The notes under the pieces: generated by a model
The model's database searches: none
Seen by the model: only the letters and a program-made list of their open reading frames with translations
What the model was told of the DNA's origin: nothing
Shown: piece by piece, positions 1 through 31,500 of the stretch
How the letters are laid out: every line of letters starts with the position of its first letter
Position numbering within the stretch: the first letter of the stretch is position 1
Source: a virus
Taxonomy: Duplodnaviria; Caudoviricetes
DNA length: 34,796 nt
Strand: one strand, 5' to 3'
Virus record (IMG/VR): IMGVR_UViG_3300042360_000143
Location: 1 to 34,796 of that record
Position numbers and translations under genes: made by a program

Positions 1-111
1 GAGCAGCTTATCACCCGCAGCGACGGCAAACCATCAGTGGCACCCGCCACCGATAAGCGTCCAGCAATGGACGTAAAACCTGTCTTGGACGATTTCCAAG
101 GCTTAATCTAA
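1..111 (+). CDS. 3' end of DUF2800 (Cas4-like PD-(D/E)xK) phage nuclease, 5'-truncated
   Basis: Frame 1 reads EQLITRSDGKPSVAPATDKRPAMDVKPVLDDFQGLI* (TAA 109-111). The GKP..AP..DKRPA ending and the position before DUF2815/PolA match APSE-like modules. Confidence 0.7.
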   Translation, partial: EQLITRSDGKPSVAPATDKRPAMDVKPVLDDFQGLI

Positions 112-139
112 CTGCAAACTGAAGATTGGATAATGTAAA

Positions 140-724
140 ATGGCTACTCAAGTACTGCTCAAGAACGTAACGCTTGCCTTCCCCGCACTGGGCGAACCGC
201 AGGCATTCGGCGAAGGCGAACCGGCATACGGTGCTAAGTTCCCCATCGAGCCTAACTCCGAAAATGCTAAGCTTATCGAAGACGCCATCAAGGCCGAGGC
301 GAAAGAGGCGTGGAAGGACAAGGCAGACAGCGTGCTGGCTATGCTCGTCGAAGACGGCAAAGTCGCGTACTCGCGCCGCGAGTATCGCTCGAAGAAGACC
401 GGCGAGCCTTACGCTGGCTTCGAAAAGACGTTCTACCTCGGCACCCGTAACGCGTCGGTTCAGCCGTCCGTATACGACCAGTACGGCGACCCTGTCGTCG
501 GCAAGGCCGAAATCACCCGCAAGGCGTTCAGCGGCGCGGTTGTGAATGCGTCTGTCGAAGTGTGGGCGCAGGACAACAAGTGGGGTCGGCGCATCAACTG
601 CTCGCTGCGCGGCATCATGCTGACCGGCGAAGGCCAAAGCTTCGGTGGCGGATCGAGCCCAGCATCTGCTGATGAGTTCGCGTCCTTCGCTAAGGCCAAG
701 GCAGACGCAGACGACGTCCTGTGA
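140..724 (+). CDS. DUF2815-family phage ssDNA-binding protein (T7 gp2.5-like)
   Basis: 194 aa with L.FPAL, SGAVVNAS, WAQDNKWGRRINCSLRGI, GEGQSFGGG and an acidic tail (ADADDVL); lies in the replication module. Confidence 0.85.
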   Translation: MATQVLLKNVTLAFPALGEPQAFGEGEPAYGAKFPIEPNSENAKLIEDAIKAEAKEAWKDKADSVLAMLVEDGKVAYSRREYRSKKTGEPYAGFEKTFYLGTRNASVQPSVYDQYGDPVVGKAEITRKAFSGAVVNASVEVWAQDNKWGRRINCSLRGIMLTGEGQSFGGGSSPASADEFASFAKAKADADDVL

Positions 725-975
725 GCATAATCGGCCACAACTCCAGCGAAGAGCAACTGCGCCTCTTAATCGAGCGTGTTGAGCGTCTGGAGGAAGAAGA
801 AAAGGGCATTCGCGATGACAAGAAGGATGTCTACAGCGAAGGCAAGGCCCTCGGCTTCGACGTGAAGATCATGCGACAAATCGTCCGCCTGCGGAAGATG
901 ACTAAGGATGATCGGGCGGAGATGGAGGCCATACTGGAGACCTACAAAAAGGCTCTTGGCATGGATCTGCTCTAA
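721..975 (+). CDS. gapR: GapR / DUF2312 nucleoid-associated DNA-binding protein
   Basis: 84 aa; EQLRLLIERVERLEEEEKGIRDDKKDVYSEGKALGFDVKIMRQIVRLRK...LETYKKALGM is the DUF2312 signature; GTGA overlap with the SSB gene. Confidence 0.92.
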   Translation: MSIIGHNSSEEQLRLLIERVERLEEEEKGIRDDKKDVYSEGKALGFDVKIMRQIVRLRKMTKDDRAEMEAILETYKKALGMDLL

Positions 976-984
976 CTGTATAAG
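956..984 (+). promoter_or_regulatory. Putative sigma70-type promoter
   Basis: TTGGCA (956-961), 17-nt spacer, TATAAG (979-984). The predicted start (~990-991) falls at the 5' arm of the first hairpin. Confidence 0.55.
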
Positions 985-987
985 ATT

Positions 988-1104
988 GGTGCGTCGGTCT
1001 CTATCCACCCTTAAGACCGACGCACCTCTATTCTGGCGAGCCGCGCGTGGTGCGGGTGCTCCTGCGTTGCTGATACACGATCGCGCGGCTCACCAGAATA
1101 GAGG
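988..1104 (+). ncRNA. Candidate structured regulatory/antisense RNA (two hairpins)
   Basis: Perfect 13-bp stem 988-1000/1014-1026; 23-bp stem 1025-1047/1082-1104 with one mismatch; loop 1056-1078 is complementary to 4187-4209. Confidence 0.65.
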
Positions 1105-1113
1105 AGTATCAGC

Positions 1114-1413
1114 ATGACTAAACTAACAATCCCACAGATCCGCGACTTGATCTCTGAACTGACCGATGAAGGCACAAAGTTGGCCCGTCGGCAGTATGAG
1201 ATAAACTTGCGCATAAACGCGTTGATGCAGGAGACGTATCGCCGCAGCTACAGCCGTGCGCCTACAAAGAGCAAACGCATCACGGCAGACGTGCGCGCGT
1301 CCGTTCGGGCTATGGCGGAAGCCAACCCCGACATGTCTCACCAAGAAATCGGAACCGCGCACAACATCAATCAGGGTCGCGTCAGCGAGATCTTGCACGG
1401 ACATCGGGGATGA
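1114..1413 (+). CDS. Small protein with C-terminal helix-turn-helix
   Basis: 99 aa, GAGGAG RBS, N-terminal coiled coil, HTH-like PDMSHQEIGTAHNINQGRVSEIL; ATGA overlap with the polymerase gene. Confidence 0.75.
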   Translation: MTKLTIPQIRDLISELTDEGTKLARRQYEINLRINALMQETYRRSYSRAPTKSKRITADVRASVRAMAEANPDMSHQEIGTAHNINQGRVSEILHGHRG

Positions 1414-3380
1414 CTACACTTTGGCTTGACCTTGAAACCTACAGCACCGTGCCGATTAAGCACGGCGCGCACCGCTACGCCGAAGAGGCCGAGGTGCTGC
1501 TTGTGGCGGTCGCAGTAGACGGCGAGCCCACGCAGGTGTGGGACTGTACGCAGGGCCACGCTGATTGGCGCAAGCGCCTGCAGGCGCTGATCAACGCAGC
1601 CGACACCGTCGTCATCCACAACAGTGCGTTCGATCGCACCGTGCTGCGCCACTGCGGCGTGCACGTGCCGTTGGAGAAGGTCGAAGACACGATGGTTCTG
1701 GCGCTGGCGCACAGCCTGCCTGCGTCGCTTGGCACGCTCTGCGACATCCTCGGCGTGCCCGTCGATAAAGCTAAAGACAAGTCGGGTAAAAAGCTGATAC
1801 AGTTGTTTACCAAGCCGTGCCCTCGGAACTGGAAGATACGGCGCGCAACGTCGGAGACGCATGCAGATGAGTGGACCAATTTCGTCGAATACGCCCGCCT
1901 CGATGTGGACGCGATGCGAAACATACACGGACGCATACCAAGATGGAATTATACACATGGTGAGCGCCACCTTTGGCAACTCGACCAAGGAGTTAATGAC
2001 CGTGGTATCGCCGTCGATGTTGACCTCGCGCAGGCAGCAATCCGAGCTTTTCGACGAGCTTCTGGATCTCTGGCCACTCGTGCGTCAAGCCTGACTGGCG
2101 GCGCGGTTCCCAACACAACGCAGCGCGAGAAGCTCCTGCAGTACCTGCGCACGTCACGCGGGCTTGAGCTGGAAGACCTGACGAAGGCGACCGTCGAGAC
2201 CCTGCTGAAGGGTGAACTGGACCCGCTGACGCGCGAGCTGCTTGAGATCCGACAACAGGCCTCGGCCACGTCGCCTGCGAAGTACGGCGCACTGATGGAC
2301 GCGGCCTCGGCCGACGGTCGCTTGCGCGGGACGATGCAGTTCTGCGGCGCAGCTCGCACAGGCCGTGACGCGGGGCGTATCTTTCAGCCGCAGAACCTAC
2401 CCCGATCGCCCGACTGGTTCGACGGCGACGTGCAGGAGCAGACGATTATTGCCTTTAAGGCGGACTGCGAAGACATCCTGTACGACAACGTCAGCGAGCG
2501 CTGCGCCTTCGCCGTGCGCGGCTGTCTGGTCGCCGCCAAGGGCAAGAAGTTCGCCATCGCCGACCTGTCCAACATCGAGGGGCGCGTGCTTGCGTGGATG
2601 GCGGGCGAGGAGTGGAAGATCGAGGCCTTCAAGGCGTACGATCGCGGCGAGGGCGCAGACCTGTACAAGGTCACCGCCGGGCGCATCCTCGCCAAAGATC
2701 CGTTCGACGTGACGAAGGCCGAGCGCCAGACGCAGGGCAAGGTGCCTGAGCTCGCTGGAGGCTACGGCGGCGGCCTCGGTGCCTACCGCAAGATGGGCGG
2801 CGCAGTGTTCGACGCAATGGACGACGAGACCATCATGGAGATCGTGCACGCGTGGCGTAAGGCGCACCCTGCGACGAAGCGCTTTTGGTACGACATCGAG
2901 GGCGCGGCGCGCGCCGCCGTGCGTGCAGATGGCGAGAGCTTCGGCGTGCGCGGCGACATGGTGCGCTTCGACCGCATGCAGGGGCCCGACGGCGTCTGGT
3001 ACGTGCGCTGCCGCCTGCCGTCTGGCCGGTACCTGTGCTACCGCAGCATGCACATCAACGAGGACAGCAAGCTCGTGTACGAGGGCATGAACCAGTTCAC
3101 GCGCAAGTGGGAGCTGCAGGAGACGTACTACGGCAAGCTGGTCGAGAACATCGTGCAGGCCGTGGCGCGCGACGTCTTCATGACGGGCATGCGCCGCGCC
3201 GAGGAGAATGACTATCCCGTCGTCCTGCGCGTGCACGACGAGCTCGTGTGCGAGGTGCCCGACCACAAGGGCTATGACGCCGACACGTTGGCGGCAATGA
3301 TGTCGACGAACCCGAGCTGGTCGATAGGCCTGCCTTTGTCTGCTGCGGGCTTCGAGGGCCTGCGCTACCGTAAGGAGTGA
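1410..3380 (+). CDS. Phage DNA polymerase, family A, with 3'-5' exonuclease (APSE-like)
   Basis: Exo motifs WLDLETYS, HNSAFDR, YARLDV; ARTGRDAG; motif A IADLSNIEGRVLAW; motif B RQTQGKVPELAGGYGGG; motif C LRVHDELV. Confidence 0.95.
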   Translation: MTTLWLDLETYSTVPIKHGAHRYAEEAEVLLVAVAVDGEPTQVWDCTQGHADWRKRLQALINAADTVVIHNSAFDRTVLRHCGVHVPLEKVEDTMVLALAHSLPASLGTLCDILGVPVDKAKDKSGKKLIQLFTKPCPRNWKIRRATSETHADEWTNFVEYARLDVDAMRNIHGRIPRWNYTHGERHLWQLDQGVNDRGIAVDVDLAQAAIRAFRRASGSLATRASSLTGGAVPNTTQREKLLQYLRTSRGLELEDLTKATVETLLKGELDPLTRELLEIRQQASATSPAKYGALMDAASADGRLRGTMQFCGAARTGRDAGRIFQPQNLPRSPDWFDGDVQEQTIIAFKADCEDILYDNVSERCAFAVRGCLVAAKGKKFAIADLSNIEGRVLAWMAGEEWKIEAFKAYDRGEGADLYKVTAGRILAKDPFDVTKAERQTQGKVPELAGGYGGGLGAYRKMGGAVFDAMDDETIMEIVHAWRKAHPATKRFWYDIEGAARAAVRADGESFGVRGDMVRFDRMQGPDGVWYVRCRLPSGRYLCYRSMHINEDSKLVYEGMNQFTRKWELQETYYGKLVENIVQAVARDVFMTGMRRAEENDYPVVLRVHDELVCEVPDHKGYDADTLAAMMSTNPSWSIGLPLSAAGFEGLRYRKE

Positions 3381-3384
3381 GATT

Positions 3385-3654
3385 ATGACAACCGAATACA
3401 ACATAACATTTCTGTATGGATTTATGGAGCCGGACGGTGGCGCATCGTTCAGTTTCAACGCTGACACGCCCCGCAAGCTGATCTTGACCAAGGAGCGGTG
3501 CTTCGAGGCCGCCAATGCCGACACGGCGACTGTGCTGGTCAAGGACGGAAAGCCCAAGGCTAAGTGCGATGCCGATCGCGCATATCTACACTACATCATC
3601 GACTGTTGGCTTGACGGCAAGCCAGTCGACCTGCAGCCGAGTGAATTGGGATAG
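3385..3654 (+). CDS. Hypothetical protein
   Basis: 89-aa ORF with AAGGAG RBS, tightly packed after the polymerase gene. Confidence 0.7.
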   Translation: MTTEYNITFLYGFMEPDGGASFSFNADTPRKLILTKERCFEAANADTATVLVKDGKPKAKCDADRAYLHYIIDCWLDGKPVDLQPSELG

Positions 3655-3655
3655 C

Positions 3656-3877
3656 ATGTTCACGCAACTAAACCCGTCGATACCGATGGACACGGCCAAG
3701 GGCGCGGGTCTGGCGCTGGCCGTCATAGACTACGGACTGGAGCACAGCCTGCTCTGGGTCGTCGCGCTGGACGCCACCGGCGAGATCTGGTGCGTGCCAA
3801 ATGCCGACGTGCGTGCGCGGAAGAACTGGTCCGCAGGGCGGCACTTGGATCTGCGCCCCGGAGAGTGGGTGGAGTGA
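3656..3877 (+). CDS. Conserved phage hypothetical protein (73 aa)
   Basis: ATG 3656 directly after the previous stop; MFTQLNPSIPMDTAKG...IDYGLEHSLLWVV.LD.TGEIW..PN..VR..KN pattern recurs in environmental phages. Confidence 0.75.
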   Translation: MFTQLNPSIPMDTAKGAGLALAVIDYGLEHSLLWVVALDATGEIWCVPNADVRARKNWSAGRHLDLRPGEWVE

Positions 3878-4167
3878 CGCCCGCAGGCCGCCTGCAGGAC
3901 CATCTCAAGCACGTCGTGCAGAAGAGTGGGGGCCAGTACCGCAAGGTGCGTTGGGAGGGCCGCAATGGCTGCCCTGACTGCTTTGTGTGGTGGACGTGGC
4001 CGCACGTCGCCTTCATCGAGATCAAGGCCGACAAGGACCGCGTCAGCAAGGTGCAGGATCAGGAGATCCAGCGCATGCGGAACTACGGCGTGCCAGTGTA
4101 CATTGCGCGTTCGAACGAAGAAATCGACGAGATTGTAGAAAAAGTGCGAAAGGGTATTGCAAGCTGA
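3874..4167 (+). CDS. VRR-NUC domain nuclease (Holliday junction resolvase-like)
   Basis: GTGA overlap start; GRNGCPD...FIEIK...S.VQ PD-(D/E)xK motifs; standard position between PolA and the helicase. Confidence 0.88.
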   Translation: MTPAGRLQDHLKHVVQKSGGQYRKVRWEGRNGCPDCFVWWTWPHVAFIEIKADKDRVSKVQDQEIQRMRNYGVPVYIARSNEEIDEIVEKVRKGIAS

Positions 4168-4185
4168 TGTTGCATGTGCCACTAG
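4157..4185 (+). promoter_or_regulatory. Putative promoter for the 4215 ORF/helicase
   Basis: TTGCAA (4157-4162), 17-nt spacer, weak -10 CACTAG (4180-4185); predicted start ~4191; intergenic gap present. Confidence 0.35.
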
Positions 4186-4214
4186 GGTGCATCAGCAACG
4201 AAGGAGTACACGAC

Positions 4215-4367
4215 ATGGCAAAGAAACGCACCAAGGCAGAACTTAAGGCAATGGCATACGCCATAGCCGACGAAGTCGAGACCCGCGCCGAGGCTATCTG
4301 GCAACGCGCACCGAAGCTCACGTACGAGCAATGCCAGAGTTTGGCGCTACTGCAGATGCTCAAATGA
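4215..4367 (+). CDS. Small basic hypothetical protein (50 aa)
   Basis: AAGGAG RBS at 4201-4206; MAKKRTKAELKAMAYAIADE...; ATGA overlap with the helicase gene. Confidence 0.7.
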   Translation: MAKKRTKAELKAMAYAIADEVETRAEAIWQRAPKLTYEQCQSLALLQMLK

Positions 4368-5728
4368 CCTTCACCCCACACGACTATCAGAAAGAGGCTA
4401 TGGCGCACCTGTACAAGGTGCGCCGTTCCGCATTGTGGATGCCGATGGGCGGCGGGAAGACCGTGTCCACGTTGACCGCGCTCGACAATCTGTCGACGGT
4501 CGAGGACGTCTTCCCTGTTCTGGTGCTGGCACCGCTGCGCGTAGCGAAGTCGACGTGGCCTGACGAGGTGGCGAAGTGGCCGCATCTGGGCCACCTGCGC
4601 GTCAGTGTCATCACCGGCACGCCGAAGCAGCGTCAGGCTGCGCTCGACGCGCCAGCCGACATTTACTGCACGAATTACGACAACCTCGTCTGGCTGCGCA
4701 CCGCCCTCGGCGACGCGTGGCCGTTCAAGACGGTCGTGGCCGACGAATTCACGCGCCTGAAGTCCTACCGCATCCGTCAGGGTGGGTCGAGGGCACGGGC
4801 GCTGGGTCAGGTGGCGCACACGCACGTGACGCGCTTCATCGGGCTCACAGGGACGCCAGCGCCGAACGGCGTCAAAGACCTGTGGGGGCAGATCTGGTTC
4901 CTCGATCAGGGCGAGAGGCTGGGCAAGACGTTCAGTGCCTTCGAGAGCCGCTGGTTCCGCAAGGGATACGACGGCTACAGCCTCGTGCCGCACGATCACA
5001 CGCAGGCCGAGGTGGAGGAGAAGCTGAAGGACATCTGCCTCACGGTTCAGGGCCTGCAGGTTGACGAGCCAATAACGACGTCAATCTATGTCGACCTGCC
5101 TCCGAAGGCGCGCGTCGCGTACAACGAGATGGAGGCCGAGATGTTCGCCATCATAAACGAGGAGGGTGTCGAGGCACCGAATGCCGCCGTGCGCACGCAG
5201 AAGTGTCTGCAAATCGCCAACGGGGCCATATACACGAATGACGTAGGAGAGTGGGAGGATGTACATGCCGCGAAGTTGGACGCACTGGAGAGCATTATTG
5301 AAGAGGCCAATGGTGCGCCTGTTATCGTTGCCTATAACTTCAAGCACGATCTCGAACGTCTACAGGCTCGCTTCCGTCAAGGCAGGGTGCTGGACGCTGA
5401 CCCTGATACGATCAGGCAGTGGAACGCCGGACGGGTGCCGCTATTATTCGCTCACCCTGCGTCGGCGGGGCACGGGCTTAACCTCGCGGACGGGGGCAAC
5501 ATCCTCGCATTCTTCGGCGTCAACTGGAACTTAGAAGAGCACATGCAGATCATCGAGCGCATCGGCCCCATGCGGCAGAAGCAGGCGGGCTATGATCGAC
5601 CGGTGCACATTTACCCGATCCTCGCGCGCAACACGGTCGACGACATGGTCATGGAGCGACTGTCGTCGAAGAAGAGCGTGCAAGAAATACTATTGGAAGC
5701 ATTGAAGCGGAGAAAAGAACATGATTGA
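4364..5728 (+). CDS. SNF2-like superfamily 2 helicase
   Basis: HDYQ Q-motif, MPMGGGKT (I), VADEFT (II), LTGTP (III), SAGHGLNL (V), QIIERIGPMRQ (VI); start taken at ATG 4364. Confidence 0.93.
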   Translation: MTFTPHDYQKEAMAHLYKVRRSALWMPMGGGKTVSTLTALDNLSTVEDVFPVLVLAPLRVAKSTWPDEVAKWPHLGHLRVSVITGTPKQRQAALDAPADIYCTNYDNLVWLRTALGDAWPFKTVVADEFTRLKSYRIRQGGSRARALGQVAHTHVTRFIGLTGTPAPNGVKDLWGQIWFLDQGERLGKTFSAFESRWFRKGYDGYSLVPHDHTQAEVEEKLKDICLTVQGLQVDEPITTSIYVDLPPKARVAYNEMEAEMFAIINEEGVEAPNAAVRTQKCLQIANGAIYTNDVGEWEDVHAAKLDALESIIEEANGAPVIVAYNFKHDLERLQARFRQGRVLDADPDTIRQWNAGRVPLLFAHPASAGHGLNLADGGNILAFFGVNWNLEEHMQIIERIGPMRQKQAGYDRPVHIYPILARNTVDDMVMERLSSKKSVQEILLEALKRRKEHD

Positions 5729-5903
5729 ATTATCGAGGTACCAGCGATGGGCCAAGCAAGAGCGGGAGCAAGGCCCAAACTTTGAGCCGACGTACACCCC
5801 AGCCGAGTTGAAGCAGATAGCTGGGGCCGCGCGGCAGTGGTCGAGGAAGGACTTCGAGCCTTACGGCCGATCGCCCTCCTCGGCCATAGCCGTCGACGAA
5901 TAA
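5721..5903 (+). CDS. Hypothetical protein (60 aa)
   Basis: GGAG upstream and overlaps the helicase stop; its 3' end overlaps the convergent gene by 43 nt. Confidence 0.4.
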   Translation: MIELSRYQRWAKQEREQGPNFEPTYTPAELKQIAGAARQWSRKDFEPYGRSPSSAIAVDE

Positions 5904-8116
5904 CCCAAGGCAGCAAGGGCCGCCGCGAACGGAACGCCATTGCGTATCATTTCGACCGCTTTAGGCCAGTCGGCCTCGGCGAAGAACCGACGCGTGTTTT
6001 GGATGTCGCCACGGTACGACGCGCCCATATCGTTCTTACGGTTAAGGTCGCGCATGTACTTCTCGCGCAGGGCGTTGCGGATGCCTTCGCTTTCGCTGAT
6101 GTCCATCGCGACTGACTGCGGGTTCTGCGCGAACTCCTCAAGCAGGCCGCGTGTGGCCTCGCCGGAGTAAGGCGCAGTCGGTTCGATGCCCTCGTCGCCC
6201 CATTTACCGATGGCAGGCGTGTACAGGGCCGTGCCGCCAGCGGGTGTGGCTTTGCTTGGAAACGCAGCTTCGAGGCGCGCCAAGTCGAGGTCGCGCAAGG
6301 ACGACGGGCTTTCCGCAGGATTGTACGGGAACACGTACGCCCCACGGTTTGTGGCCGTGACGCCGTACTTCGATGCGTTGTCGCCTAGACCTTCGATTAG
6401 TGCTTGCAACTGCTCCGATGTTGGCTGCACGCCAGCTTCCGCCGCGCGGGCACCGCTGTCCATCAAAATGGCGTTCTTGCCGGGTAACGATCGGCGGGTG
6501 TTTGGCAAGTTCGCCGCAGAGGCCTCTTGCGCGTCCGCTACGCCACGGAAACGCGCGGCCACCGACATCGCACCTTCGCTCAAGGGCGATATGCGCCCGC
6601 CACCGCCGCCGGTGGGGTAATCCATAAGCGGCCTTGCGATAGACAGCGGGTTGAATTCAAAGTCACCCTGCATGTTTTGGTACGCGCCGGAGCTCTGCAC
6701 AGTCGGCAGTTGGCGTAGGCCAAGGGCGGAGTATATAAGATCTCGGTCGCCTTCGCCGACACTTGCGGGCATATCACCCATCATGCCAAGATCCATTGCG
6801 GCGCGTTCAGGCACTGGCTGCGACCACGAGCCTTGGTTGCCGTACGCTATCTTCTCTTCGGGTGTCATGCCGAGGACGTCGGACATGTGGCCGGTGGACG
6901 CGCCCGGCGTCATCTCGTACGTTTCGCTAAGGGCATGCTTGGGGAAATAATCCGCAGGGGTCATGTTGGCCTCGCGAATGGCGGCCGTCATACCTTCGAT
7001 AGGCTCACCGCCGAAACGCCCTGTCGGGCTGCTCCCACGAGAGTAGAGATCCTGCGCCTTGCCGTAGACCCAAGGAATTTCTTGCATCTGCTCGCCGCGC
7101 CAGTCGGTTATCCCGCCCATAGCGCGCTGGTTTGCGCGCTGTGTCATTAGGCCGGTCTCCATGTCCATGACAGGGTGCATTGTGCCGCTAACGGCTGCCT
7201 TCCAAGGCTCGCCGCTTGGATCTGTGTAACCCATGCCCTGCGCCCAACGGAAGTCGTTAACGCCGAATAGCCTTTTGCCGGAGGCTTCAGGCGTCAGGCG
7301 AGGATCTTGCTTGTTCTTGTACTCGCCGGTTTTGTCGCCAAGTACCGCAAAGCGGTTTTCGGCAACGGCATTGTCGAGGGCGCGTTCGCCCGCGCCACGG
7401 TAGGCCATAGCGGGCTCGCCAAGGGCGCGGGAATTGAGGTGCTTAAGCACAAAACCGAGTTCGCTTTCTGGCGACACGCCAGCGCTGTACACGCCGTGCT
7501 GCTCCAACGAGCGGTCCAACTGATACGGCTCGTTGCTGACGGCCATGCCAGCGCGTGCGCGGTCGTACCAGTTTCCGAGGTTCTCGGGATCTGCAAGTGC
7601 GATGGCGTCGGACGCTTGCTGGACGTTGGCGTCCAAGTCGCCGCGCATTACACGTAAGTCTGCGGGGCCGCTCACGGTGCGAGGGAAGCCGATGTAGCCG
7701 CTTTCGGTCCGCTTCAAATGCTCACCGGCGTTACCGGCGCGCAGCACGGCCTCGGGCCCTTGCTCCGCTTCCATTTGGCGGTAAATTGTGGGCTCGACGC
7801 GACCACGTTTGCCGCTGATTTGTTTCTGGCTTTGGTTAGTGTCGGCCTTGGCCACTTTGGTGCGGCGCTTGGCTTCTTGCTTCTGCTTGGAGCCAAAGCG
7901 CTCGTACACAGCAAGCTCCTGCGGCGTGTACGCACGCGTCGGCTCGGCTTTTGCGGCGAGCGGTTTCTTCGCCGCCTTCTTCGCAACAGGCTTAGCGGCG
8001 AGATCCGGCGCGCCAACGGCACGACGCAATGGCTTCTCAATCGCGTCGGGGATGTAATCCGACGCGAGCTTCAGCGCCTCTTCTACTGCCAGCCGCTTTA
8101 AGCTCTTCTTCGCCAT
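5861..8116 (-). CDS. Putative internal virion/effector protein with possible HhH-glycosylase-like domain
   Basis: 751 aa, last gene of the late operon; basic N-terminus; WY..YSAGVSP..GDK..NDFRW..GY..W..EQMQEIPW pattern; hydrophobic C-terminal helix. Confidence 0.6.
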   Translation of the reverse strand: MAKKSLKRLAVEEALKLASDYIPDAIEKPLRRAVGAPDLAAKPVAKKAAKKPLAAKAEPTRAYTPQELAVYERFGSKQKQEAKRRTKVAKADTNQSQKQISGKRGRVEPTIYRQMEAEQGPEAVLRAGNAGEHLKRTESGYIGFPRTVSGPADLRVMRGDLDANVQQASDAIALADPENLGNWYDRARAGMAVSNEPYQLDRSLEQHGVYSAGVSPESELGFVLKHLNSRALGEPAMAYRGAGERALDNAVAENRFAVLGDKTGEYKNKQDPRLTPEASGKRLFGVNDFRWAQGMGYTDPSGEPWKAAVSGTMHPVMDMETGLMTQRANQRAMGGITDWRGEQMQEIPWVYGKAQDLYSRGSSPTGRFGGEPIEGMTAAIREANMTPADYFPKHALSETYEMTPGASTGHMSDVLGMTPEEKIAYGNQGSWSQPVPERAAMDLGMMGDMPASVGEGDRDLIYSALGLRQLPTVQSSGAYQNMQGDFEFNPLSIARPLMDYPTGGGGGRISPLSEGAMSVAARFRGVADAQEASAANLPNTRRSLPGKNAILMDSGARAAEAGVQPTSEQLQALIEGLGDNASKYGVTATNRGAYVFPYNPAESPSSLRDLDLARLEAAFPSKATPAGGTALYTPAIGKWGDEGIEPTAPYSGEATRGLLEEFAQNPQSVAMDISESEGIRNALREKYMRDLNRKNDMGASYRGDIQNTRRFFAEADWPKAVEMIRNGVPFAAALAALGYSSTAMAEEGDRP

Positions 8117-17770: not shown

Positions 17771-18333
17771 TACAGGGCGTCCGCGCTAAGGTCTACAGTC
17801 CACGTATCAAGCACCGTGGCAGTGCCGGTGCGGCGAACTTGGAATGTTAGTTGGGCATACACGGAGTTTCCTGATCCAGAAATATCTACGAACCAAGCGG
17901 GGTTGCCGGATGTCGCTACCCAACTGCCAATCGTGCCAACAGGAGGGTTACCGGTGTAAGTAGCGTAAACTTCGTAGTTTCCACCTTGGCTGGTGGGCGT
18001 GCACCACTGCTGTACGTACATGTAAGAGCCGCCGTTATACTGTTCGTATACCTGCCCGTTGGCAGCACCGGCACCAAAAATAGCATATCCTGCTTCAGAA
18101 TAACCCCCAGCACTGGCGTTTACCGAGTGGTCGTTAAAGTCCACGACCACACTGCTCTTACCGTAGAAGTTGGTCGGCACGATGATAGCGCCAGACGCGA
18201 CGCCCGCCAGTGTGCGGACATCGGTGTCGTTCAGCGAAACCGTGGCGGTAGCGGATTTACCCAACTCAAGGTTGATGGACTGCCCCGCAGTGCTGCCACC
18301 CAAGCTGATTGGGCCTGAAGAGTTGAGCGTCAT
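17770..18333 (-). CDS. Putative fibre-tip adhesin / receptor-binding protein
   Basis: 187 aa; N-terminal MTLNSSGPISL...ELG...NFYGKS module usually found right after S74-processed fibres; aromatic-rich beta C-domain. Confidence 0.55.
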   Translation of the reverse strand: MTLNSSGPISLGGSTAGQSINLELGKSATATVSLNDTDVRTLAGVASGAIIVPTNFYGKSSVVVDFNDHSVNASAGGYSEAGYAIFGAGAANGQVYEQYNGGSYMYVQQWCTPTSQGGNYEVYATYTGNPPVGTIGSWVATSGNPAWFVDISGSGNSVYAQLTFQVRRTGTATVLDTWTVDLSADAL

Positions 18334-21300
18334 TATTTAGCTCCCCGTAGCTCGTCCAGTTCTGCCTTTAACTCTTTGATGGCCGCGAATGCCACGGCGA
18401 CCAGTTTCTCGTAATCAACAGCCAGTGTGCCATCGTCGCGGGTGCGAACGGCCAATGGGAACATTGCCTCCACGTCCTGCGCGATGACGCCGAAGTCGCT
18501 CTTGCGGACGAAGTAGTCGTCCTCGCCGCCATGCTCTGCGATGTAGGCATCGGTCCAGTCGAAGGTCTTGCCGCCAACTGTAGTCACGATGGTGAGGGCG
18601 TTCTCGATTGGACGCACGTTCTCTTTCAGGCGCGCATCGGACGAGTAGAACGCCGTGACGTTGTTGGTCGCACGGATCTCGCCCGCAGTGCCTGAACCAG
18701 CGGTGCCGACGCCGAGGCTGTTGACCTGATAGTTGTTGCTTGTGTTCAGCGCGTTGGCTGTGGTCGCCGTTGTGGCAGTCGTGGCTGACGTCGCGCTCGT
18801 GGCTGACGTTGCGCTGGTCGCCGATGTGGCCGTCGCCGCGTTGCCGCTGATGTTGATGCCCCAAGTGCCGCTTGCGCCCGAACCTCCACGCGATGGGACA
18901 TCAAGCGCGGTTTGCGCACCGCTTGCGGTGCTGGAGCCTGTGCCGCCGTTGACGACGGCGACGGTGCCGGTAAGCTTAGAGGCCGCCAGCGACGCGATGA
19001 AAGACGGATCAGAATAGCTGGCCGTCGTCACGACGCCGTTGGGCACGCTCGCGGCGGTGCCGCTGATGCTAATGCCCCACGTGCCGCTTGCGCCCGAGCC
19101 TGTTGTGGATGGCACACCGAGTGCAGACTGCGCAGTGGCTTGTGTGGTTCCGCCGGTGCCGCCGTTGCCGATCGCAAGCGTGCCGCCAAGAGTAAGCGTG
19201 CCGGACGTTGTGATAGGACCGCCGGTCAGGGTCATTCCAGTCGTGCCGCCGGAGCCGCTGACACTGGTGACAGTACCCGCGCTGCCTGTGGCAGAGATAG
19301 TGATCGAACCAGCGCCGTTGGAGATGCTGATGCCAGAACCGGCAGTAAGCGTCGCCTTCGCGAGTGTATTGCCAGTGCTGTTCCCGATGAGCAGCTGCCC
19401 GTTGGTGTACGTCGTCTGGCCGGTGCCGCCGTTGGTGACGGCCACAGTGCCAGTGACGTTGGCTGCGTTGCCGCTAATGTCGCCAGTTATCTTCGTGCCA
19501 GCGAGTGCCGTGATCCACGTCGGGTTGGAGTAGGAGCCAGTCGTCACGACGCCGTTCGTCGCCGTCGCTGCGTTACCGCTGACGTTAATCGCCCACGTCC
19601 CGCTGGCGTCGCCGCCGGTGCGCGTCGGCACATCGAGTGCGGTGCGTGCGAGGGCTGCCGTAGTCGCGCCAGTACCGCCGTTGGCGATGGCGACCGTGCC
19701 GGTGACGTTGGCGGCGCTGCCGCCTATGTTACCCGTGATCTTTGAGCCCGCGAGTGATGTTATCCAAGCCGGATCTGCGTACGAGCCCGTTGTGACGACG
19801 CCATTCGTGGCGGTGCCCGCGTTTCCTGTGACGTTGATGCCCCACGTCCCACTTGCGCCAGATCCAGTGCTCGAGGGGACGTCGAGTGCAGAGCGTGCAC
19901 CAGACGCAGTAGTGGACCCTGTACCGCCGTTGGCGATGGCGAGTGTGCCCGCGAGGGTGATGGTGCCCGCGCCGGTGACAGGTCCGCCGGAAGTGGTCAG
20001 GCCTGTCGTACCGCCGCTGACGTCTACTGACGTTACGGAGCCGCCGCCAGCTGTGGACGATATGGTGATACCGCCCGCGCTGTTCGTGACAACGATACCG
20101 GAACCGGCACTGAGGGTCGAGAGGTTGTAGCCTGTGCCGTTGCCGATCAGAAGCTGCCCGTTTGTGGGCGTGGTCGCAACACCGGTGCCGCCCTGTGCGA
20201 CAGTGAGCGCGGTGGTCAAGCCCGTGAGAGAGGTGATGTCGGAGTTCGCACCTGCGGCTGCCGCGCCGAGCGTGAGGCGTGCGCCGGAGGCACTGGTCGC
20301 GCCAGTGCCCCCAGACGCTATCGCGAGCGTTCCGCCGAGTGTCAGCGTGCCCGAGGTTGTGACCGGCGAGCCGGTGAAGGATAGGCCGGTTGTGCCGCCC
20401 GATGCGGCCACCGACGTTACAGTACCAGCACCGGCGGTGGACGTGATGGTGATGCCGCCCGCGCTGTTCGTGATGCTGATGCCCGAGCCAGCCGTCAGGG
20501 TCGCCTTCGTGAGCGTGTTGCCTGTGCTGTTACCGATGAGCAACTGCCCGTCGGTGTATGTAGTTTGACCCGTTCCGCCGTTGGCGACAGGCAGAGCAGT
20601 GCCCGACAGCGACACGGCAAGCGTGCCGGACGTCGTGATCGGCGAGCCTGTTACGGACAGGAAGGACGGTACTGTCAGCGCGACGCTGGTAACCGAGCCT
20701 GAGCCCGTGCCGACGCCCACGCCGTTGATGAAGAGGCCCGTGGCATTGATGGTGCCCGCGCCCTGCGCGCCAGCCGTAGGCGCGCCGATCTGGATGCCTG
20801 CCGCGTTGGTGAGCGCAGTGATGTCTGCGTTCGAGCCGCTTGCCGCAGCGCCGAGGTTCGTGCGTGCGCCGCCAGCGGTCGTGGAGCCGGTGCCGCCCTG
20901 CGCGACGGTCAATGCCGTCGTGAGGCCCGTGATTGACGTGATGTCGGAGTTCGCGCCTGCGGCTGCCGCCGAGATGGTTGAGCGCGCACTCGCGGCAGTC
21001 GCCGCAGTGAAGAGCGCAGCGCCGATGCCCGTCGCGCCCAAGTTGGTGCGCGCCGAGGTTGGGTTGTTTGCGCCGGTGCCGCCCTGCAATACAGGTAAGA
21101 TGCCCGCGAAGGGCGCGGATGTAGTTGCCGAGATGATGTCCGTACCGTCGCAGTACAGGATCGCGGTCTCGCCCTGAGTAACCAGTGTGGCTGCGCCGCT
21201 GGCGGTCTTGATGCCGAGCGTGAACGCGCCGGTCGTGGCGTTGTTTACCCAATACTGTTGGACCGTTGCGGGCACGACGATGTTGGCGTTGGACGTCAGC

Positions 21301-22133
21301 GTGCCGTTGAACTTGTACGCGATGCGGTTCAGCTCAGATCCAGAGAGCGTGTACGTGCCGCCGGTGACGGCGATGGTCGTGTAGTCAAAGGCGAAGACGG
21401 CCTGCTGTCCGAGGCCGATGGTGTACCACTGGACGCCGTCGCTGACGACCACGGCGCTGTCGCCCGGCTGCAGGCGGAGTGTGGACGACGCGTTGATAAG
21501 CTCCGTGCCGGACGGGTCGATGGTCAAGTCGCCTTGGCCGCCGTTGCGGACCTGCACGAACCAGCCGTCGCCAGCGCCGACGGCCGTAGGCAAGTTCAAC
21601 GTGCCGAGGCCGCCGTTCCAGACAAAGACCTTAGCGCGGTCAGGGGCCGTGAGGCTGTAGGGCGTGATGGAGAAGTCAACGACTTCGTAATTCTGTGCGA
21701 GTTCCGAGCCGTCTGCGATCAGACCGGCACCGGCGAGGGCCGCAGCTTGTGCCTGCGCCACGGCAGCGCCGTAGCGGAATGTGCGCCAAATACCGCCGAC
21801 GGTGGTGTTGTTGATGAGGTACGCCTGCCACTGCTCGCCTGCGCCAATGCTCAGAATTGCGTTGCCTGCGGCGTTGTCGATGGTGATGGTATCGGGGCCG
21901 AGGTTGTTGAACAGGATTGTCTGGCCGACGCTGACGGCAGTCGCGTCAGGAAGCGTGACGGTGAACGGCCCTGTCGGTGTGATGTCGATGATGCGCGCGA
22001 CGACGCTGTCGCCCTCGCCTGCGCCAACTGGCCAGTTAAGCGCGATGTCGTCGGTGAGCGCCAGCGAGAGGTAGGAAACGTCTGCGGGGTATATCGTCGT
22101 GCCGCCGAAGACTTGAGTGAAACTGCCAGACAT
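18333..22133 (-). CDS. Tail fibre protein with C-terminal peptidase S74 intramolecular chaperone
   Basis: 1266 aa; many (L/V)A(I/V)ANGGTG repeats, SAT tandem repeats; SSDARLKENV...GVIAQDV...VDYEKL...AIKEL. Confidence 0.9.
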   Translation of the reverse strand: MSGSFTQVFGGTTIYPADVSYLSLALTDDIALNWPVGAGEGDSVVARIIDITPTGPFTVTLPDATAVSVGQTILFNNLGPDTITIDNAAGNAILSIGAGEQWQAYLINNTTVGGIWRTFRYGAAVAQAQAAALAGAGLIADGSELAQNYEVVDFSITPYSLTAPDRAKVFVWNGGLGTLNLPTAVGAGDGWFVQVRNGGQGDLTIDPSGTELINASSTLRLQPGDSAVVVSDGVQWYTIGLGQQAVFAFDYTTIAVTGGTYTLSGSELNRIAYKFNGTLTSNANIVVPATVQQYWVNNATTGAFTLGIKTASGAATLVTQGETAILYCDGTDIISATTSAPFAGILPVLQGGTGANNPTSARTNLGATGIGAALFTAATAASARSTISAAAAGANSDITSITGLTTALTVAQGGTGSTTAGGARTNLGAAASGSNADITALTNAAGIQIGAPTAGAQGAGTINATGLFINGVGVGTGSGSVTSVALTVPSFLSVTGSPITTSGTLAVSLSGTALPVANGGTGQTTYTDGQLLIGNSTGNTLTKATLTAGSGISITNSAGGITITSTAGAGTVTSVAASGGTTGLSFTGSPVTTSGTLTLGGTLAIASGGTGATSASGARLTLGAAAAGANSDITSLTGLTTALTVAQGGTGVATTPTNGQLLIGNGTGYNLSTLSAGSGIVVTNSAGGITISSTAGGGSVTSVDVSGGTTGLTTSGGPVTGAGTITLAGTLAIANGGTGSTTASGARSALDVPSSTGSGASGTWGINVTGNAGTATNGVVTTGSYADPAWITSLAGSKITGNIGGSAANVTGTVAIANGGTGATTAALARTALDVPTRTGGDASGTWAINVSGNAATATNGVVTTGSYSNPTWITALAGTKITGDISGNAANVTGTVAVTNGGTGQTTYTNGQLLIGNSTGNTLAKATLTAGSGISISNGAGSITISATGSAGTVTSVSGSGGTTGMTLTGGPITTSGTLTLGGTLAIGNGGTGGTTQATAQSALGVPSTTGSGASGTWGISISGTAASVPNGVVTTASYSDPSFIASLAASKLTGTVAVVNGGTGSSTASGAQTALDVPSRGGSGASGTWGINISGNAATATSATSATSATSATSATTATTATTANALNTSNNYQVNSLGVGTAGSGTAGEIRATNNVTAFYSSDARLKENVRPIENALTIVTTVGGKTFDWTDAYIAEHGGEDDYFVRKSDFGVIAQDVEAMFPLAVRTRDDGTLAVDYEKLVAVAFAAIKELKAELDELRGAK

Positions 22134-26335: not shown

Positions 26336-27352
26336 TTATTTCTCGGCAGGGCGAAGCTCGACGTTCTCGGTCCACGCGGCGCGGGCTTCGTCGCCGATTA
26401 AACCCATGAACGGGCAGGGCGTACCGGCCATTTCCATCGCGCCGAATACGCGGGGGTCTTGGCACAGGAGGCTCACGGCGGCGACGCGCATGCCCATGTC
26501 GTACAGGGTCTTCGACAGCTTCATCCGCTCGCAGTTCTGATCGCGAACGGTGCGGCCTGCCGACAGGCCGATTATCTGCGTCTGCACTGCGCCAGACTGG
26601 CCGGTGGTGCAGAGGTCTTGGCTGTAGGACATCATGGACGGCGCGATGGCGCTGGGCGGTGGCGACTTGATGTTCTGGTCGATAACCTGACGATTGACGC
26701 TCTCGCTGTAGCTCTTGCTGTCGGACACGTTGACGTTGTTGTTCTGGTTGACGTTGCGGTTATCGCTGCTTGTCGTCTGGTTGATCGTGCTGGTGTCGTT
26801 GTTCGTGTTGTTGGTGTTTACGGTGCTGTTGACCGTCTGGTTGACGGTGCTGTTGCTGACATCCGTATTGAAATTGCGGTTTGTCGCCTCGGATGTGCTG
26901 GCGTTGGTGTTCTGGTTGATGTTCGTCATCGTGCCAGAATTGATGTTCGTGTTCTGGTTGATGTTCGTCATCGTCCCAGTGTTTTGGTTTATGTTGGTGT
27001 TGGTCGACGAACTGACGTTGTTATTGTTGTTCGTGTTCAGCGACGTGCTCGTGCTGGCATTCACGTTGTTGTTCGTGTTGACCGACGTGCTGGTGCTATC
27101 GTTGGTGTTGAAGTTTGTGTTGGTGTTCACCGACGTGCTGGCAGACGTGCTGTTGTTGTTATTCGTGTTCGTTGACGTGCTGGTGGAATTGTTGTTGTTC
27201 GTGTTGGTGGACGTGTTGGTGTTGTCCGACGTGCTGGTTGTCGTCGTGGTGTAGACATACTCCGTCGGAGCAACCGACACAGGCGCGGTCTGTGCGAGCA
27301 CCATGCTACACCAGCCAAGAGAGACAAGAACCCAATACCTTTTAATCATCAC
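26336..27352 (-). CDS. Exported protein with Thr/Asn/Ser 14-aa repeats and C-terminal four-Cys domain
   Basis: Sec signal MMIKRYWVLVSLGWCSMVLA/Q; ~180 aa of T/N/S repeats; PPPSAIAP..DLC..NCERMKLSK.L...GM.VAAVSLLCQD.RV..AM.MAGTPCP. Confidence 0.85.
   Translation of the reverse strand: MMIKRYWVLVSLGWCSMVLAQTAPVSVAPTEYVYTTTTTSTSDNTNTSTNTNNNNSTSTSTNTNNNNSTSASTSVNTNTNFNTNDSTSTSVNTNNNVNASTSTSLNTNNNNNVSSSTNTNINQNTGTMTNINQNTNINSGTMTNINQNTNASTSEATNRNFNTDVSNSTVNQTVNSTVNTNNTNNDTSTINQTTSSDNRNVNQNNNVNVSDSKSYSESVNRQVIDQNIKSPPPSAIAPSMMSYSQDLCTTGQSGAVQTQIIGLSAGRTVRDQNCERMKLSKTLYDMGMRVAAVSLLCQDPRVFGAMEMAGTPCPFMGLIGDEARAAWTENVELRPAEK
26907..26974. repeat. 26-bp perfect direct repeat with 42-bp period
   Basis: gtgttctggttgatgttcgtcatcgt at 26907-26932 and 26949-26974, defining the 14-aa repeat unit. 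Confidence 0.9.
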
Positions 27353-27576: not shown

Positions 27577-27938
27577 TATTTCAGGTTCCGCAGCTTATAT
27601 ACGGCGGTCAGGTACACTTCCGTGACGCCATCGACCAAGTTGGCCACTGCGCGGTTGCCCTCGCAGATGTCCTCGTGGTTCTCTTCGATCCAGTCCGCAT
27701 CAGCCTCTAGGAGCTTCAGCACGTCACGCTCAGTCACCTTCGGGGCTGGTATGTTCCCGATGAGGCTGAACGCGCCTTGGTAGGCTTCTACGAGACGGTC
27801 GATTGCGTCGATGACGTCGTCGTAGAAGCGGCCCAATGTCTTGTGCTTTGCGAAACTACCATCACCCTTGGCGCGCCAGTGCTCAAAGTGCGCCACGTTG
27901 CGTGCGTAGAACACGCGGCTGATGAGTTCCTCGATCAT
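27576..27938 (-). CDS. Ferritin/Dps-like protein (DUF5856-type)
   Basis: HFEHW...FAKHKTLGRFYD...IDRLVEAYQG...YKLRNLK carries the Dps-like H/D/E metal ligands. Confidence 0.8.
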   Translation of the reverse strand: MIEELISRVFYARNVAHFEHWRAKGDGSFAKHKTLGRFYDDVIDAIDRLVEAYQGAFSLIGNIPAPKVTERDVLKLLEADADWIEENHEDICEGNRAVANLVDGVTEVYLTAVYKLRNLK

Positions 27939-28534: not shown

Positions 28535-31500
28535 TTACTTTCCTTCCAATTCGGCCACGCGGGCTTCGAGTTCCTTGATTGCTTCTATTAATACACCAAC
28601 AAGGTTACCATAGGCAACAGAGAGCGTGTCGTTGTCACCCGTGCCTTGATGAACCGCTTGCGGCATCACTTCCAACATCTCTTGAGCGATAACGCCGACA
28701 CCAGCTTCGCCGGTATCTTTACGTGTGTATGTGACGCCGCGCATCTTACCGACGAGACCAAGCGCGTCACCAATGGTCTCAACGTCCTTTTTGAGACGGG
28801 CATCTGAATAGGCCGTGACGTTTGCTGTAGCTACAACATTTCCAGAGCTATCAATCGTCATGGTGATGGAGCTAGAATTGTTGCGGAAGTAGTGAATATT
28901 AGCGTTATAATAATTATTCGGGTCGGCGGTTCCACCAAGCCACAACTTGGTCGCCCCATTAACGTCGCAAAACTGCGTCCATACGCCGCTATCCAAAATA
29001 ATGGCACTGTTGCCAGATGAATGTTGAATGCCAGCAGCGCGGACAGTGCTAAGGACCGAAGTGCTGTTTGGGTCAACGAAGAATGCAGTGTTGTTATAAT
29101 CGTAAAAGATAGGCGCACGCATATCGCCGATGGCGCGCATACTTGGGTCAAGCGATGCTTGAAACACGCCGTTCTGGATGAGCATTAAACCGTGTGTAGA
29201 CAGGTTTGCAGCGGGACCGCCAGCACTGGGGTACGAAAACCATAGGCCGTAGGCGCTGGCTAAACTAGTTCCATCTGCGTTGCCTTTGTACGCATCACCT
29301 AAAGCCCAAACAAGCTGGTATCGCGTTGATGAGTAGGTACCGACGATACCAAGACCGTAATTACCGAAAGTATGGAAGCCTTGTTGGCTGGAGGTGTTCC
29401 AGTTAGAAGTGCTGGCCCCGTCGAAGTAATAACCCGTGTTGTTGCTGTCGTAGAAGATAGGTGCGCGCAGTGAGCCACCACCTTGCGCGTAATCCCCCGC
29501 GATTGTCAGAGACAGCGTGTTGCCACTCCAAAAGGTATATGTGCCAGCAGAACTACCGCTCGACTGGAACTGCACGTTGGTGGCGCTGACACTAGGCGTG
29601 GGCGCGCCGTCATAACCGGTCCTAATCCAGAGGCTTTGGGTGCCAGTGGTGCTGAGTAATTGAATACCTGCTGCGCCATTTTGGTTAACCCTAAAATCAC
29701 CAAGAACATTTGAGCCAGCGTTAGGGTCGATATAATAGGCGGTGTTGTTGCTGTCGTAAAACAAGGGCGAACGCATATCGACCGGAGCAGTCACGTATCC
29801 ACTTGTGTGCATCAACAGCCAAGAACTGGTGCGGACGCCGTTAAAACCAGACGAACATCCACCAATCCAGAACGTGTTTCCGGTGTCGATGCCCATGCCC
29901 ATCGCGTGTTGACCAGCGCGGGTGAAACCAAGGTATGAATAGTTTGCATCAGTGCGGCGAGTGATACCCAAAAGGCCGTAAGGGTCTGGCGATACTGCCG
30001 CTTCGTCGTATACGTTCAATCCTATACCGACATTTATCTGCTTAGTGATACTGGTGCCAGCGGGGTCGATATAATAGCCAGTGTTATCTAAGTCGTAGAA
30101 AAGCGGCGAACGGACACTATTCCCAGCATACAAAATCTGCTCGACGCGTACATTAAGGTCGCCTTCGCCTACTGAGAACAGCGTATTACCAGTGGTAATT
30201 TCCTTAAAACGGAAGCCTCCATAGCCATTGTGAGCATAAAAACGCTGGCCTGTATACCACTTAAAATCCAACTTACTGTAGTTGCCGCCAAAATTTTCCA
30301 TATTGGTGGTGATGTGGTAGTTTGTCGAGGCGTCGCCGCCCGTGGAGCCAAAATATAGCTTTCCAGTGGCAGCAGCGTTGTAAGCCAACGTGCTTCCGCT
30401 ATCACCAACAAGAAGCGAACTTAAAGAAGAAGTGCCAGCAAAGTCACCGTAGTACGCGGTGTTGTTGCTGTCGTAGAAGATAGTCGCACGGACGTCGTTG
30501 GCTACGACGAAGTTTCCAGTGTTTATCCGCAACGCTATTGTCGCAGAGCCGTTGGTTATGTCGGCGCTGTTGCCGTTAACCCAAAACACCATGCCGCTCT
30601 GAGCTTCGGTGTAATCAACGCCGATAGCGGAGTATTTGACGCTTCCTGAGTTCATCACAATGACAGGGAATTGGGATGCAAGGTATAGCGCCCTGTTCCA
30701 ACCGCCAGACATTGTAGTCCCGCCGTTAATCTGGACTTGCCCTACTAGATTTGAACCAGATGCGGGATCGACATAATACGTAGTGTTGTTGCTGTCGTAG
30801 TATATCGGCGAGCGGATATCGGTATTTATGGTGACGTTGCCATAGTTAACCGCCATCTGCTGTTGCCAGCTACTGCCGTTGTTCGCCCAGTGAGCAAGAC
30901 CGCCGCCAGAAATGGCATCGATAGCGCCGATGGCAGTGCCGCCGTTGGTCCACCAGACAGACGGCACGGTGCCATTGCCGTCGAAGGCCACGACACGATT
31001 TGTGCCGCGACCAGTAAGGACGTTGCTAAAGGTTGTTCCTGCGGGTGTGAGGTTGCCGTTACCCGCGTTTAGCGCACCTTCAATCAGCAGCCCGTTGGTC
31101 GCTACCGCTGTCGCGGCAAGATTGCTTCCGATGGTTGTCCCGCCGTTGATGTGGAGTTTTTTGTTAGCGACGTTCGACCCACCGCCGCCAATGCAGAATG
31201 TGGAGTTTGCGCCGTTGTACCAAATAAAGTCGCTACCCGCGACATCCGCCCAAGAAATGCCCGCCCACGAAGTGCCGTTACCGTTCAGGTATAGCTGCAC
31301 GTCATTGCTGTTCTGGATAGTCAGAGTGCCAGTAAGCGTCCCGCCAGTGAGCGGAAGGTAACTGGCTGGGTTAAAGTTGCCCGCGTTCCAAATAGAGTAG
31401 TAGCTACCGCCGACCTGTAGGTACGCGTCATTGACGCTGCCGACGCCGAGGATTGTTTGCCCTGAACCACCACCACGGATGAACTTGGTGCTGTCTCCGA

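Follow-up and report, generated by a model that had tools for sequence, protein, structure and literature searches.

The window analysed here is a 34.8-kb virus fragment (Duplodnaviria; Caudoviricetes), positions 1 to 34,796 of IMG/VR record IMGVR_UViG_3300042360_000143. The left end of the window is a replication module with genes for SSB, GapR, a helix-turn-helix (HTH)-like protein, DNA polymerase A, a VRR-NUC nuclease, a 50-aa open reading frame (ORF), and an SNF2 helicase. A long hairpin lies directly behind the GapR-like gene, and an initial annotation of the sequence had described its loop as a trans-acting antisense RNA aimed at the leader of the 50-aa ORF and helicase, 3.1 kb downstream. 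Our analysis points to a broader system, in which the loop is antisense to a 9-mer, AUCAGCAAC, here called the tag, that stands before the Shine-Dalgarno (SD) sequence of several genes in related phages. The features of the locus are the following.

721..975, + strand: GapR-like gene (PF10073, E 7e-32), whose final codons hold the -35 box of the hairpin promoter.
955..983, + strand: predicted alphaproteobacterial sigma70 promoter, CTTGGC-N17-GTATAA, with +1 near 990.
988..1024, + strand: hairpin 1, variable in sequence with an always stable stem, a predicted 5' protector and 3' barrier.
1025..1104, + strand: hairpin 2, with a 23-bp stem and an invariant 1x1 mismatch (C1037.A1092); the base of the stem buries the downstream SD.
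1037..1094, + strand: predicted 58-nt RNA, bounded by RNase III cuts after G1036 and C1094 (pair-matrix prediction).
1056..1063, + strand: anti-SD/anti-spacer seed GUGCUCCU, on a small inner hairpin, tracking the post-SD bases across relatives.
1066..1074, + strand: anti-tag seed GUUGCUGAU, mostly single-stranded (predicted mean unpaired probability 0.62).
1101..1116, + strand: SD GAGGAG, whose GAGG is base-paired within the stem, then spacer UAUCAGC and the start codon AUG of the gene that follows, including a loop-complementary self-target at 1107-1115.
1114..1413, + strand: 99-aa HTH-like gene, optional among relatives, overlapping the polymerase start.
1410..3380, + strand: family A DNA polymerase.
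3874..4167, + strand: VRR-NUC nuclease, whose 3' end contains the -35 box of the target promoter.
4156..4184, + strand: predicted promoter ATTGCA-N17-CCACTA, a member of a genome-wide promoter family.
4191..4217, + strand: target leader, unstructured, with the tag AUCAGCAAC at the predicted +1, SD AAGGAG at 4201-4206, and AUG at 4215.
4215..4367, + strand: 50-aa ORF, one among many exchangeable small genes behind such leaders.
4364..5728, + strand: SNF2-type helicase, without an SD of its own, its start overlapping the 50-aa ORF (ATGA).

The pairing first noticed in the window is present as described. The loop segment 1056-1078 pairs with 4187-4209 through 20 Watson-Crick pairs, one G-U pair, and two mismatches; the long hairpin has arms at 1025-1047 and 1082-1104 around a 34-nt loop, and the target site contains the SD AAGGAG of the 50-aa ORF, which overlaps the helicase ATG at 4364. 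The fold of 976-1120 has an energy of -72.2 kcal/mol (z -6.6), and 0 of 200 shuffled sequences were as stable. Within the window the match itself is only moderately unlikely by chance, as 4 of 1000 shuffled loops reached 20/23 identities on either strand. A raw duplex scan ranked 4187-4209 best on the + strand but narrowly (-39.4 vs -38.5), and two minus-strand sites scored better. Among the 89 SD-bearing start codons in the window, the target site is again the best (-39.0), the next reaching -31.2 and the mean being -20.5 (standard deviation 4.8). The predicted energetics are 6.1 kcal/mol for loop opening, 1.1 kcal/mol for target opening, and -28.5 kcal/mol for the duplex; RNAcofold cannot model loop-loop pairing and gave no information on the duplex. 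The doubt over chance pairing is removed because the pairing is conserved in relatives.

Both sites had been said to follow promoter-like sequences, and both do fit the alphaproteobacterial consensus CTTGAC-N17-CTATAT (PMC2873474, accessible portion), with +1 near 990 and at 4191, whereas an Escherichia coli-type promoter scan returned no sites in 1-7000. Of 92 distinct gapR ends, 77 contain a -10-like box (lenient pattern), and in most cases an almost invariant [AC]TTGG[CA] precedes it by 17 nt. An imperfect inverted repeat, TGCAA-N7-TTGCA, lies over the -35 box and spacer of the 4156-4184 promoter (window positions 4158-4174) and of many other tagged promoters; a phage DNA-binding protein may use it as an operator, for instance the product of a gene upstream of the primase gene (L127:1746-1961) that appears Cro-like by eye.

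The hairpin region was compared across 223 gapR loci, which collapse to 120 distinct downstream regions. In most of the 120, a -10 box comes after the gapR stop, then hairpin 1 (variable), then hairpin 2, and finally an SD with its gene, either the polymerase gene, the HTH gene, or another one; in some outgroup phages, hairpin 1 is followed by a terminator-like T-run. In 35 aligned hairpin-2 sequences, 18 of the 20 stem pairs change on both sides, 89% of the alignment cells are paired vs 41-51% in slid controls, and outside the mismatch column G-U occurs 11 times and A-C 4 times. The invariant mismatch is unpaired in 35/35 (C.A in 25, U.U in 10). A model built from these 35 sequences matches nine basal loci, better on the + strand, and has no match in the other 21 sources searched; loci L285 and L354 carry hairpin 2. 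Judged by this covariation, hairpin 2 is a real and conserved RNA structure. Its overall shape is a single long stem with a branched top, and the folding predictions expose two antisense seeds in the loop, one mostly unpaired and one on a small inner hairpin, while the GAGG of the polymerase-operon SD is fully paired in the stem. The loop is complementary, more weakly, to its own downstream start region at 1107-1115. A terminator scan found no terminator-like site before 6233, and an SD and AUG lie directly 3' of the stem; with no terminator behind it, the hairpin is therefore the 5' leader of the HTH/polymerase message. Two other candidates were rejected: a leader peptide is contradicted by the frame that crosses the hairpins (908-1117, 69 codons), which matches no family and suffers 1-2-nt indels in close relatives, and an invertible DNA segment would be too short and has no recombinase.

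The stem also resembles an RNase III substrate. Ten core positions were scored with E. coli RNase III pair counts taken from the accessible part of PMC6212723 (Table S4). The best register is identical in 32 of 35 sequences, and six of seven held-out basal stems agree on it. The window stem scores 7.1 bits (pair-order shuffle, p 0.002; column shuffle of the alignment with 12 of its 35 rows, p 0.0007), and the + strand scores higher than the reverse complement in 35/35. Five bits are reached by 0/85 hairpin-1 stems vs 54% of hairpin-2 stems. RNase III sites are described as having G-C pairs between the cuts and A-U or U-A pairs three positions further out (PMC6212723, same portion). Likewise, columns 11 and 12 of the stem are G-C in 34 and 32 of the 35 sequences, column 8 is U-A in 34/35, and column 15 is A-U or U-A in 28/35; at 23 bp, the stem has the required length of about 22 bp. 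The predicted cuts after G1036 and C1094 would yield a 58-nt stem-loop and an mRNA starting with AGAAUAGAGGAG, predicted to be held by a mere 10-bp remnant (-13.8 kcal/mol). Because of this fit of sequence and structure, we infer that the hairpin is likely cut out by the host RNase III.

The comparison of loops with tags carries the main argument. Covariation was counted over six tag classes and 164 distinct promoter leaders, and 147 of the 164 belong to the same class as the loop of their own genome; the loop/target covariation that could be expected of an antisense pair is thus found in the relatives. The non-standard classes are pure: ACCAACA (23/23), YCAAGCAA with a one-base insertion (7/7), GTCAGCA (5/5), CTCAGCAA (4/4), and ATCAACAA (2/2). 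One natural loop/tag variant pair is GUUGUUGGU and ACCAACAAC, a further natural tag variant is AUCAAGCAA, and the variant classes fall on different branches of a polymerase tree with 106 tips (FastTree). On the leader behind the primase gene, chosen by position and independently of the loop, own loops outperformed swapped loops by a centred -6.2 kcal/mol (permutation p 1e-5, which overstates the certainty, the 31 related genomes being hand-picked), and the own loop was better in 10 of 11 disjoint pairs. The second seed follows the SD and post-SD bases at a variable distance from the 9-mer, as in the pairs GTTTGCTCCT with AGGAGCAAAC, TGGTACTCCT with AGGAGTACCA, and TGTCCCTCCA with TGGAGGGACA; in basal clades, the second seed alone is present. 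Loop and tag thus appear to co-evolve, which lends strong comparative support to antisense pairing in trans.

The tag is not confined to the helicase leader. Followed by an SD, AUCAGCAAC is a recurrent element at gene starts on the replication-gene strand, so that other leaders do carry it, as the initial annotation had raised: the exact tag with SD and start codon occurs in 3-5 copies in each of six near-complete genomes, and another relative has eight copies in a 20-kb stretch. The 34.8-kb window holds one copy, at 4191; the near-identical genome G006 has a second one about 2.3 kb upstream of it. In each of these multi-copy genomes, the hairpin loop is the antisense copy of the tag. Among relative contigs, the pattern TTGCA...CARCAAC turned up in 10/10 and 24/34, almost exclusively on the strand of the replication genes, and reversed patterns used as controls gave close to nothing; a loose pattern scan of DNA from viral contigs returned mainly unrelated matches. 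One tagged promoter, directly after the primase gene, drives an operon that runs into the hairpin itself. Some copies have no promoter and are sited after a stop codon or a UUCG hairpin, which points to a reading at the RNA level. Five promoter-less tags (L108:379, L111:16814, L115:5175, L120:5598, and L123:5172) lie directly 3' of a conserved GGGGGC-TTCG-GCCCCC hairpin with no U-tract, which is possibly a processing or stabilising site.

The first genes behind tags were grouped into 60 clusters, whose proteins are mostly small (median 89 aa). Two clusters were left out of the Pfam scan as likely false starts, and two of the remaining 58 had matches, both to DUFs. Among 90 distinct VRR-NUC-to-helicase intervals, a tagged leader is present in 68 and absent in 20, and the 50-aa ORF is the first gene in only seven. 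The trans pairing of the initial annotation is therefore borne out by covariation, whereas its restriction to the helicase unit is not, given the multi-copy tag, the leaderless intervals, and the rarity of the 50-aa ORF. In the window genome, the helicase, which has no SD of its own, could be reached via translational coupling. In relatives, the helicase start usually overlaps or abuts the preceding gene, and the VRR-NUC-to-helicase gap (4168-4363 in the window) is a hot spot for promoter-bearing small-gene cassettes of 0 to 2.1 kb with up to three promoters.

We consider it probable that RNase III both gates the polymerase operon and releases an antisense RNA whose silencing of tagged messages provides negative feedback. 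Transcription would start from the predicted promoter at 955-983 and from the tagged promoter upstream, and the two hairpins would fold and bury the polymerase SD, as covariation and folding support. RNase III would then cut after 1036 and 1094, freeing the SD of the polymerase operon and releasing the 58-nt RNA. The free GUUGCUGAU seed would nucleate on the unstructured tag, after which the anti-SD seed would cover the SD and spacer. As it accumulates, the RNA would turn down the small accessory genes, the exonuclease-SSB-GapR operon, and the 50-aa ORF together with the helicase coupled to it; the polymerase operon would be affected too, though less strongly. The overall effect would be a negative-feedback timer in an integrase-less phage.

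Several observations weigh against this reading. Seventeen of the 123 leaders in the commonest loop class deviate from the loop (seven begin with G, allowing a G-U pair, six differ at the first base, and four internally), and the G-U asymmetry on the 9-mer, about 2% either way, did not discriminate. The invariant mismatch would be U-G on the opposite strand in 25/35. The RNase III matrix comes from E. coli, only 21/35 stems are individually significant, and the hairpin-1 controls are shorter. The early timing of the tagged genes is suggested by position and gene size alone. Moreover, genome G045 (52% complete) has no hairpin 2 and a hairpin 1 with a T-run, yet carries four AUCAGCAAC leaders, and two sister loci of G045 each keep one decayed tag. 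A tag can thus persist without a loop and may have a role of its own. As G045 is nested among hairpin-bearing phages in the tree, a recent loss or relocation of the hairpin is possible. At three of the four G045 tags (L473:7645, 7876, 8964, and 13404), a small GGGGC...GCCCC hairpin lies between tag and SD, and similar inserts occur in L301, L314, and L075, all loop-bearing.

The same observations can be set against other explanations. The tagged messages might themselves be triggers that bind the loop and relieve cis repression of the polymerase operon, imposed by the stem over the SD together with loop pairing to 1107-1115, so that replication waits for earlier transcription. The polymerase SD is fully paired, and the complementarity of the loop to its own start region tracks over 47 related loci (centred -2.7 kcal/mol, p 5e-5). 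However, a loop duplex could probably not open the SD, given its distance at the base of a stable, GC-rich stem of 23 bp; with the full stem in place, 2 nt would need to bridge 23 bp, which rules out a pseudoknot; several clades show little or no cis pairing; and a trigger pairing with the loop would have its own SD covered as well. We regard such a trigger as unlikely, while a mixed version, in which triggers titrate the RNA off the polymerase start after cutting, is possible. A shared protein operator, the alternative offered in the initial annotation, is weakened by the comparison and now seems quite improbable. In that case, the 9-mer would be an operator or stoperator at +1, or a site for an RNA-binding protein, and the loop copy an inverted site or decoy. 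The tag does lie at the promoter +1 in strict orientation, it persists in G045 without the hairpin, and all copies in a genome change together, as any single reader would produce. Nevertheless, the complementarity runs over the SD and following bases at variable spacing, basal clades pair only at the SD-side seed, and at the loop copy, which lies in the exposed loop of a + strand RNA structure, the minus strand shows no -35/-10.

We give still less weight to the view that the hairpin is only a T7-like RNase III site, the tag a translation enhancer or favoured initial sequence, and their match the leftover of an inverted duplication kept by gene conversion. The RNase III fit is independent of the pairing, CA-rich enhancers exist (PMC3879156, accessible portion), and G045 again has tags without a loop, but the correspondence is limited to the two seeds, the stretch between them varying with the inner stem, matched changes occur in at least five separate lineages, and the leader positioned behind the primase gene is tagless in all seven hairpin-less rows compared. 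Least credible to us is an RNA specific to the helicase unit that works without processing or as a leader fragment made by termination. The single tag copy in the 34.8-kb window and the dependence of the helicase on ATGA coupling would agree with it; the window is, however, a fragment, G006 holds another copy, 20/90 intervals lack a leader before the helicase, and no terminator follows the hairpin.

The preferred reading, an RNase III-released antisense RNA, can be compared with known systems. The C4 precursor is reportedly an RNase P substrate and the C4-type fold is tRNA-like, whereas the stem here fits RNase III and forms a single long stem with a branched top. According to the accessible text of PMC12197685, C4 of P1/P7 is a phage RNA that acts in trans on a ribosome-binding region via loop-exposed complementarity, with divergence leading to heteroimmunity. 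The trans pairing of loops with a ribosome-binding region is shared; however, C4 targets ant mRNA for lysogeny, and here 3-8 dispersed leaders are found in integrase-less phages. P4 CI RNA, processed from the untranslated leader of a replication operon, base-pairs with the transcript it comes from (PMC4825925, in part). It is likewise a leader-derived RNA of a replication operon, but CI causes premature termination through the flanking seqA/seqC, whereas the RNA here would mainly target other messages, with pairing that extends over SDs. C4 and CI have targets confined to their own operon, and here such a self-target is only partial. Rfam gave no matches at E<=1 in the window and none at the gathering score in five relatives; RF01695 was found in 0/5 genomes, although the control of that search matched nowhere either. 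The narrower idea of a C4-like switch for the helicase unit fails as the main role.

Long stems cleaved by RNase III mature phage T7 mRNA or free ribosome-binding sites (PMC5371410, PMC3867540), as in adhE and lambda cIII (PMC5371410); the accessible parts of these sources give the excised hairpin no part in regulating phage genes, unlike the RNA proposed here. Through a G/U-rich seed, GcvB represses many mRNAs at a C/A-rich element lying immediately 5' of their SD (PMC3879156, same portion). Seeding on a CA-rich element and multiple targets are shared, while GcvB is a host RNA that is Hfq-dependent and has loose targets and its own Rho-independent terminator with a U-tail, which the hairpin RNA lacks; here a near-invariant tag co-evolves with the seed. 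DicF is said to be a prophage small RNA made with RNase III; it differs in targeting host ftsZ. The phage antisense RNAs covered in the accessible part of the review PMC12197685 have a single phage target, regulate host genes, or work in cis. We found no published description of the element, in a search whose coverage left out most subscription journals and whose gaps include bioRxiv supplements that might list it. On the comparative evidence, the hairpin RNA would be a phage antisense control broader than the helicase unit and outside the C4, CI, GcvB, and T7/adhE families.

A parallel in layout is the start-associated sequence (SAS) of cluster K mycobacteriophages. This oriented motif, which takes in the SD, is repeated ahead of small non-structural genes; four phages also have one inverted copy, and the function of the motif was left open (PMC3203893, accessible portion). 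The tag is likewise oriented, multi-copy, at non-structural gene starts, and accompanied by a lone inverted copy, but sequence, phage, and host are unrelated and SAS phages are temperate, which makes it an analogue and no homologue. In Anaya, Angelica, Peanam, and LilPharaoh, the inverted SAS forms the loop of the second of two hairpins (unpaired probability 0.94-0.99), and stem changes in these four preserve pairing. The exact anti-SAS loop is present in only 4/9 cluster K phages examined; Hammy has an anti-SD loop, and the four others have other loops. SAS is unmentioned in the accessible part of the Hammy paper. The anti-SAS hairpins lie near the right genome end in cluster K1 (L481:19800-19910, corresponding to about 59800-59910 of JF704106; L482:13560-13680; L483; L484). 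We treat the cluster K parallel as a lead only. A wider proposal, possible but doubtful, is that phages tag a gene set with a shared leader address that is shut off by one RNase III-released RNA whose making switches on the polymerase operon, that clade tag variants are exclusion groups against superinfecting relatives, and that the design arose separately in cluster K. If so, the design would account there for the SAS repeats, which were left without explanation in 2011; as these mycobacteriophages can be cultured, the question of SAS function can be put to the test in M. smegmatis. If true, one RNA that co-evolves with a leader tag across the genome would amount to a protein-free regulon for expression timing in an integrase-less phage, coupled to the activation of DNA replication, and the natural orthogonal loop/tag pairs offer ready-made compensatory mutants.

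The related phages have genomes of 53-60 kb and were found in viral and metagenome collections. An alphaproteobacterial host is suggested by the GapR gene and the style of the promoters. Among cultured relatives, the Caulobacter Riverwalk phages are nearest (helicase identity 66%); those examined have neither the loop nor tagged promoters, and blastn of 950-1120 matched no cultured phage. A prophage search of genome contigs returned three loci only (40-46%), none of them close. An immunity role had also been suggested for the RNA; immunity of lysogens is unlikely because no integrase or resolvase (PF00589, PF00239) was matched in 5/5 complete relatives. The stretch is present in contigs of one run on record as RNA (share 0.20) and of three probable DNA runs; these contigs are strandless and level-less and span late genes too, and they are not counted as evidence.

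Elsewhere in the window, the - strand encodes a 338-aa late-region protein with Asn/Thr-rich repeats (26339-27352; phrog_20531) and, amid structural genes, a 120-aa ferritin/Dps-like protein (27579-27938; DUF5856, phrog_858). Two very long, repeat-rich ORFs of 2046 and 1266 aa on the same strand (28535-34675 and 18333-22133) are probably tail fibres. In the relative G001, a GroES-like co-chaperonin gene (L105:8646-9068) adjoins the portal gene.

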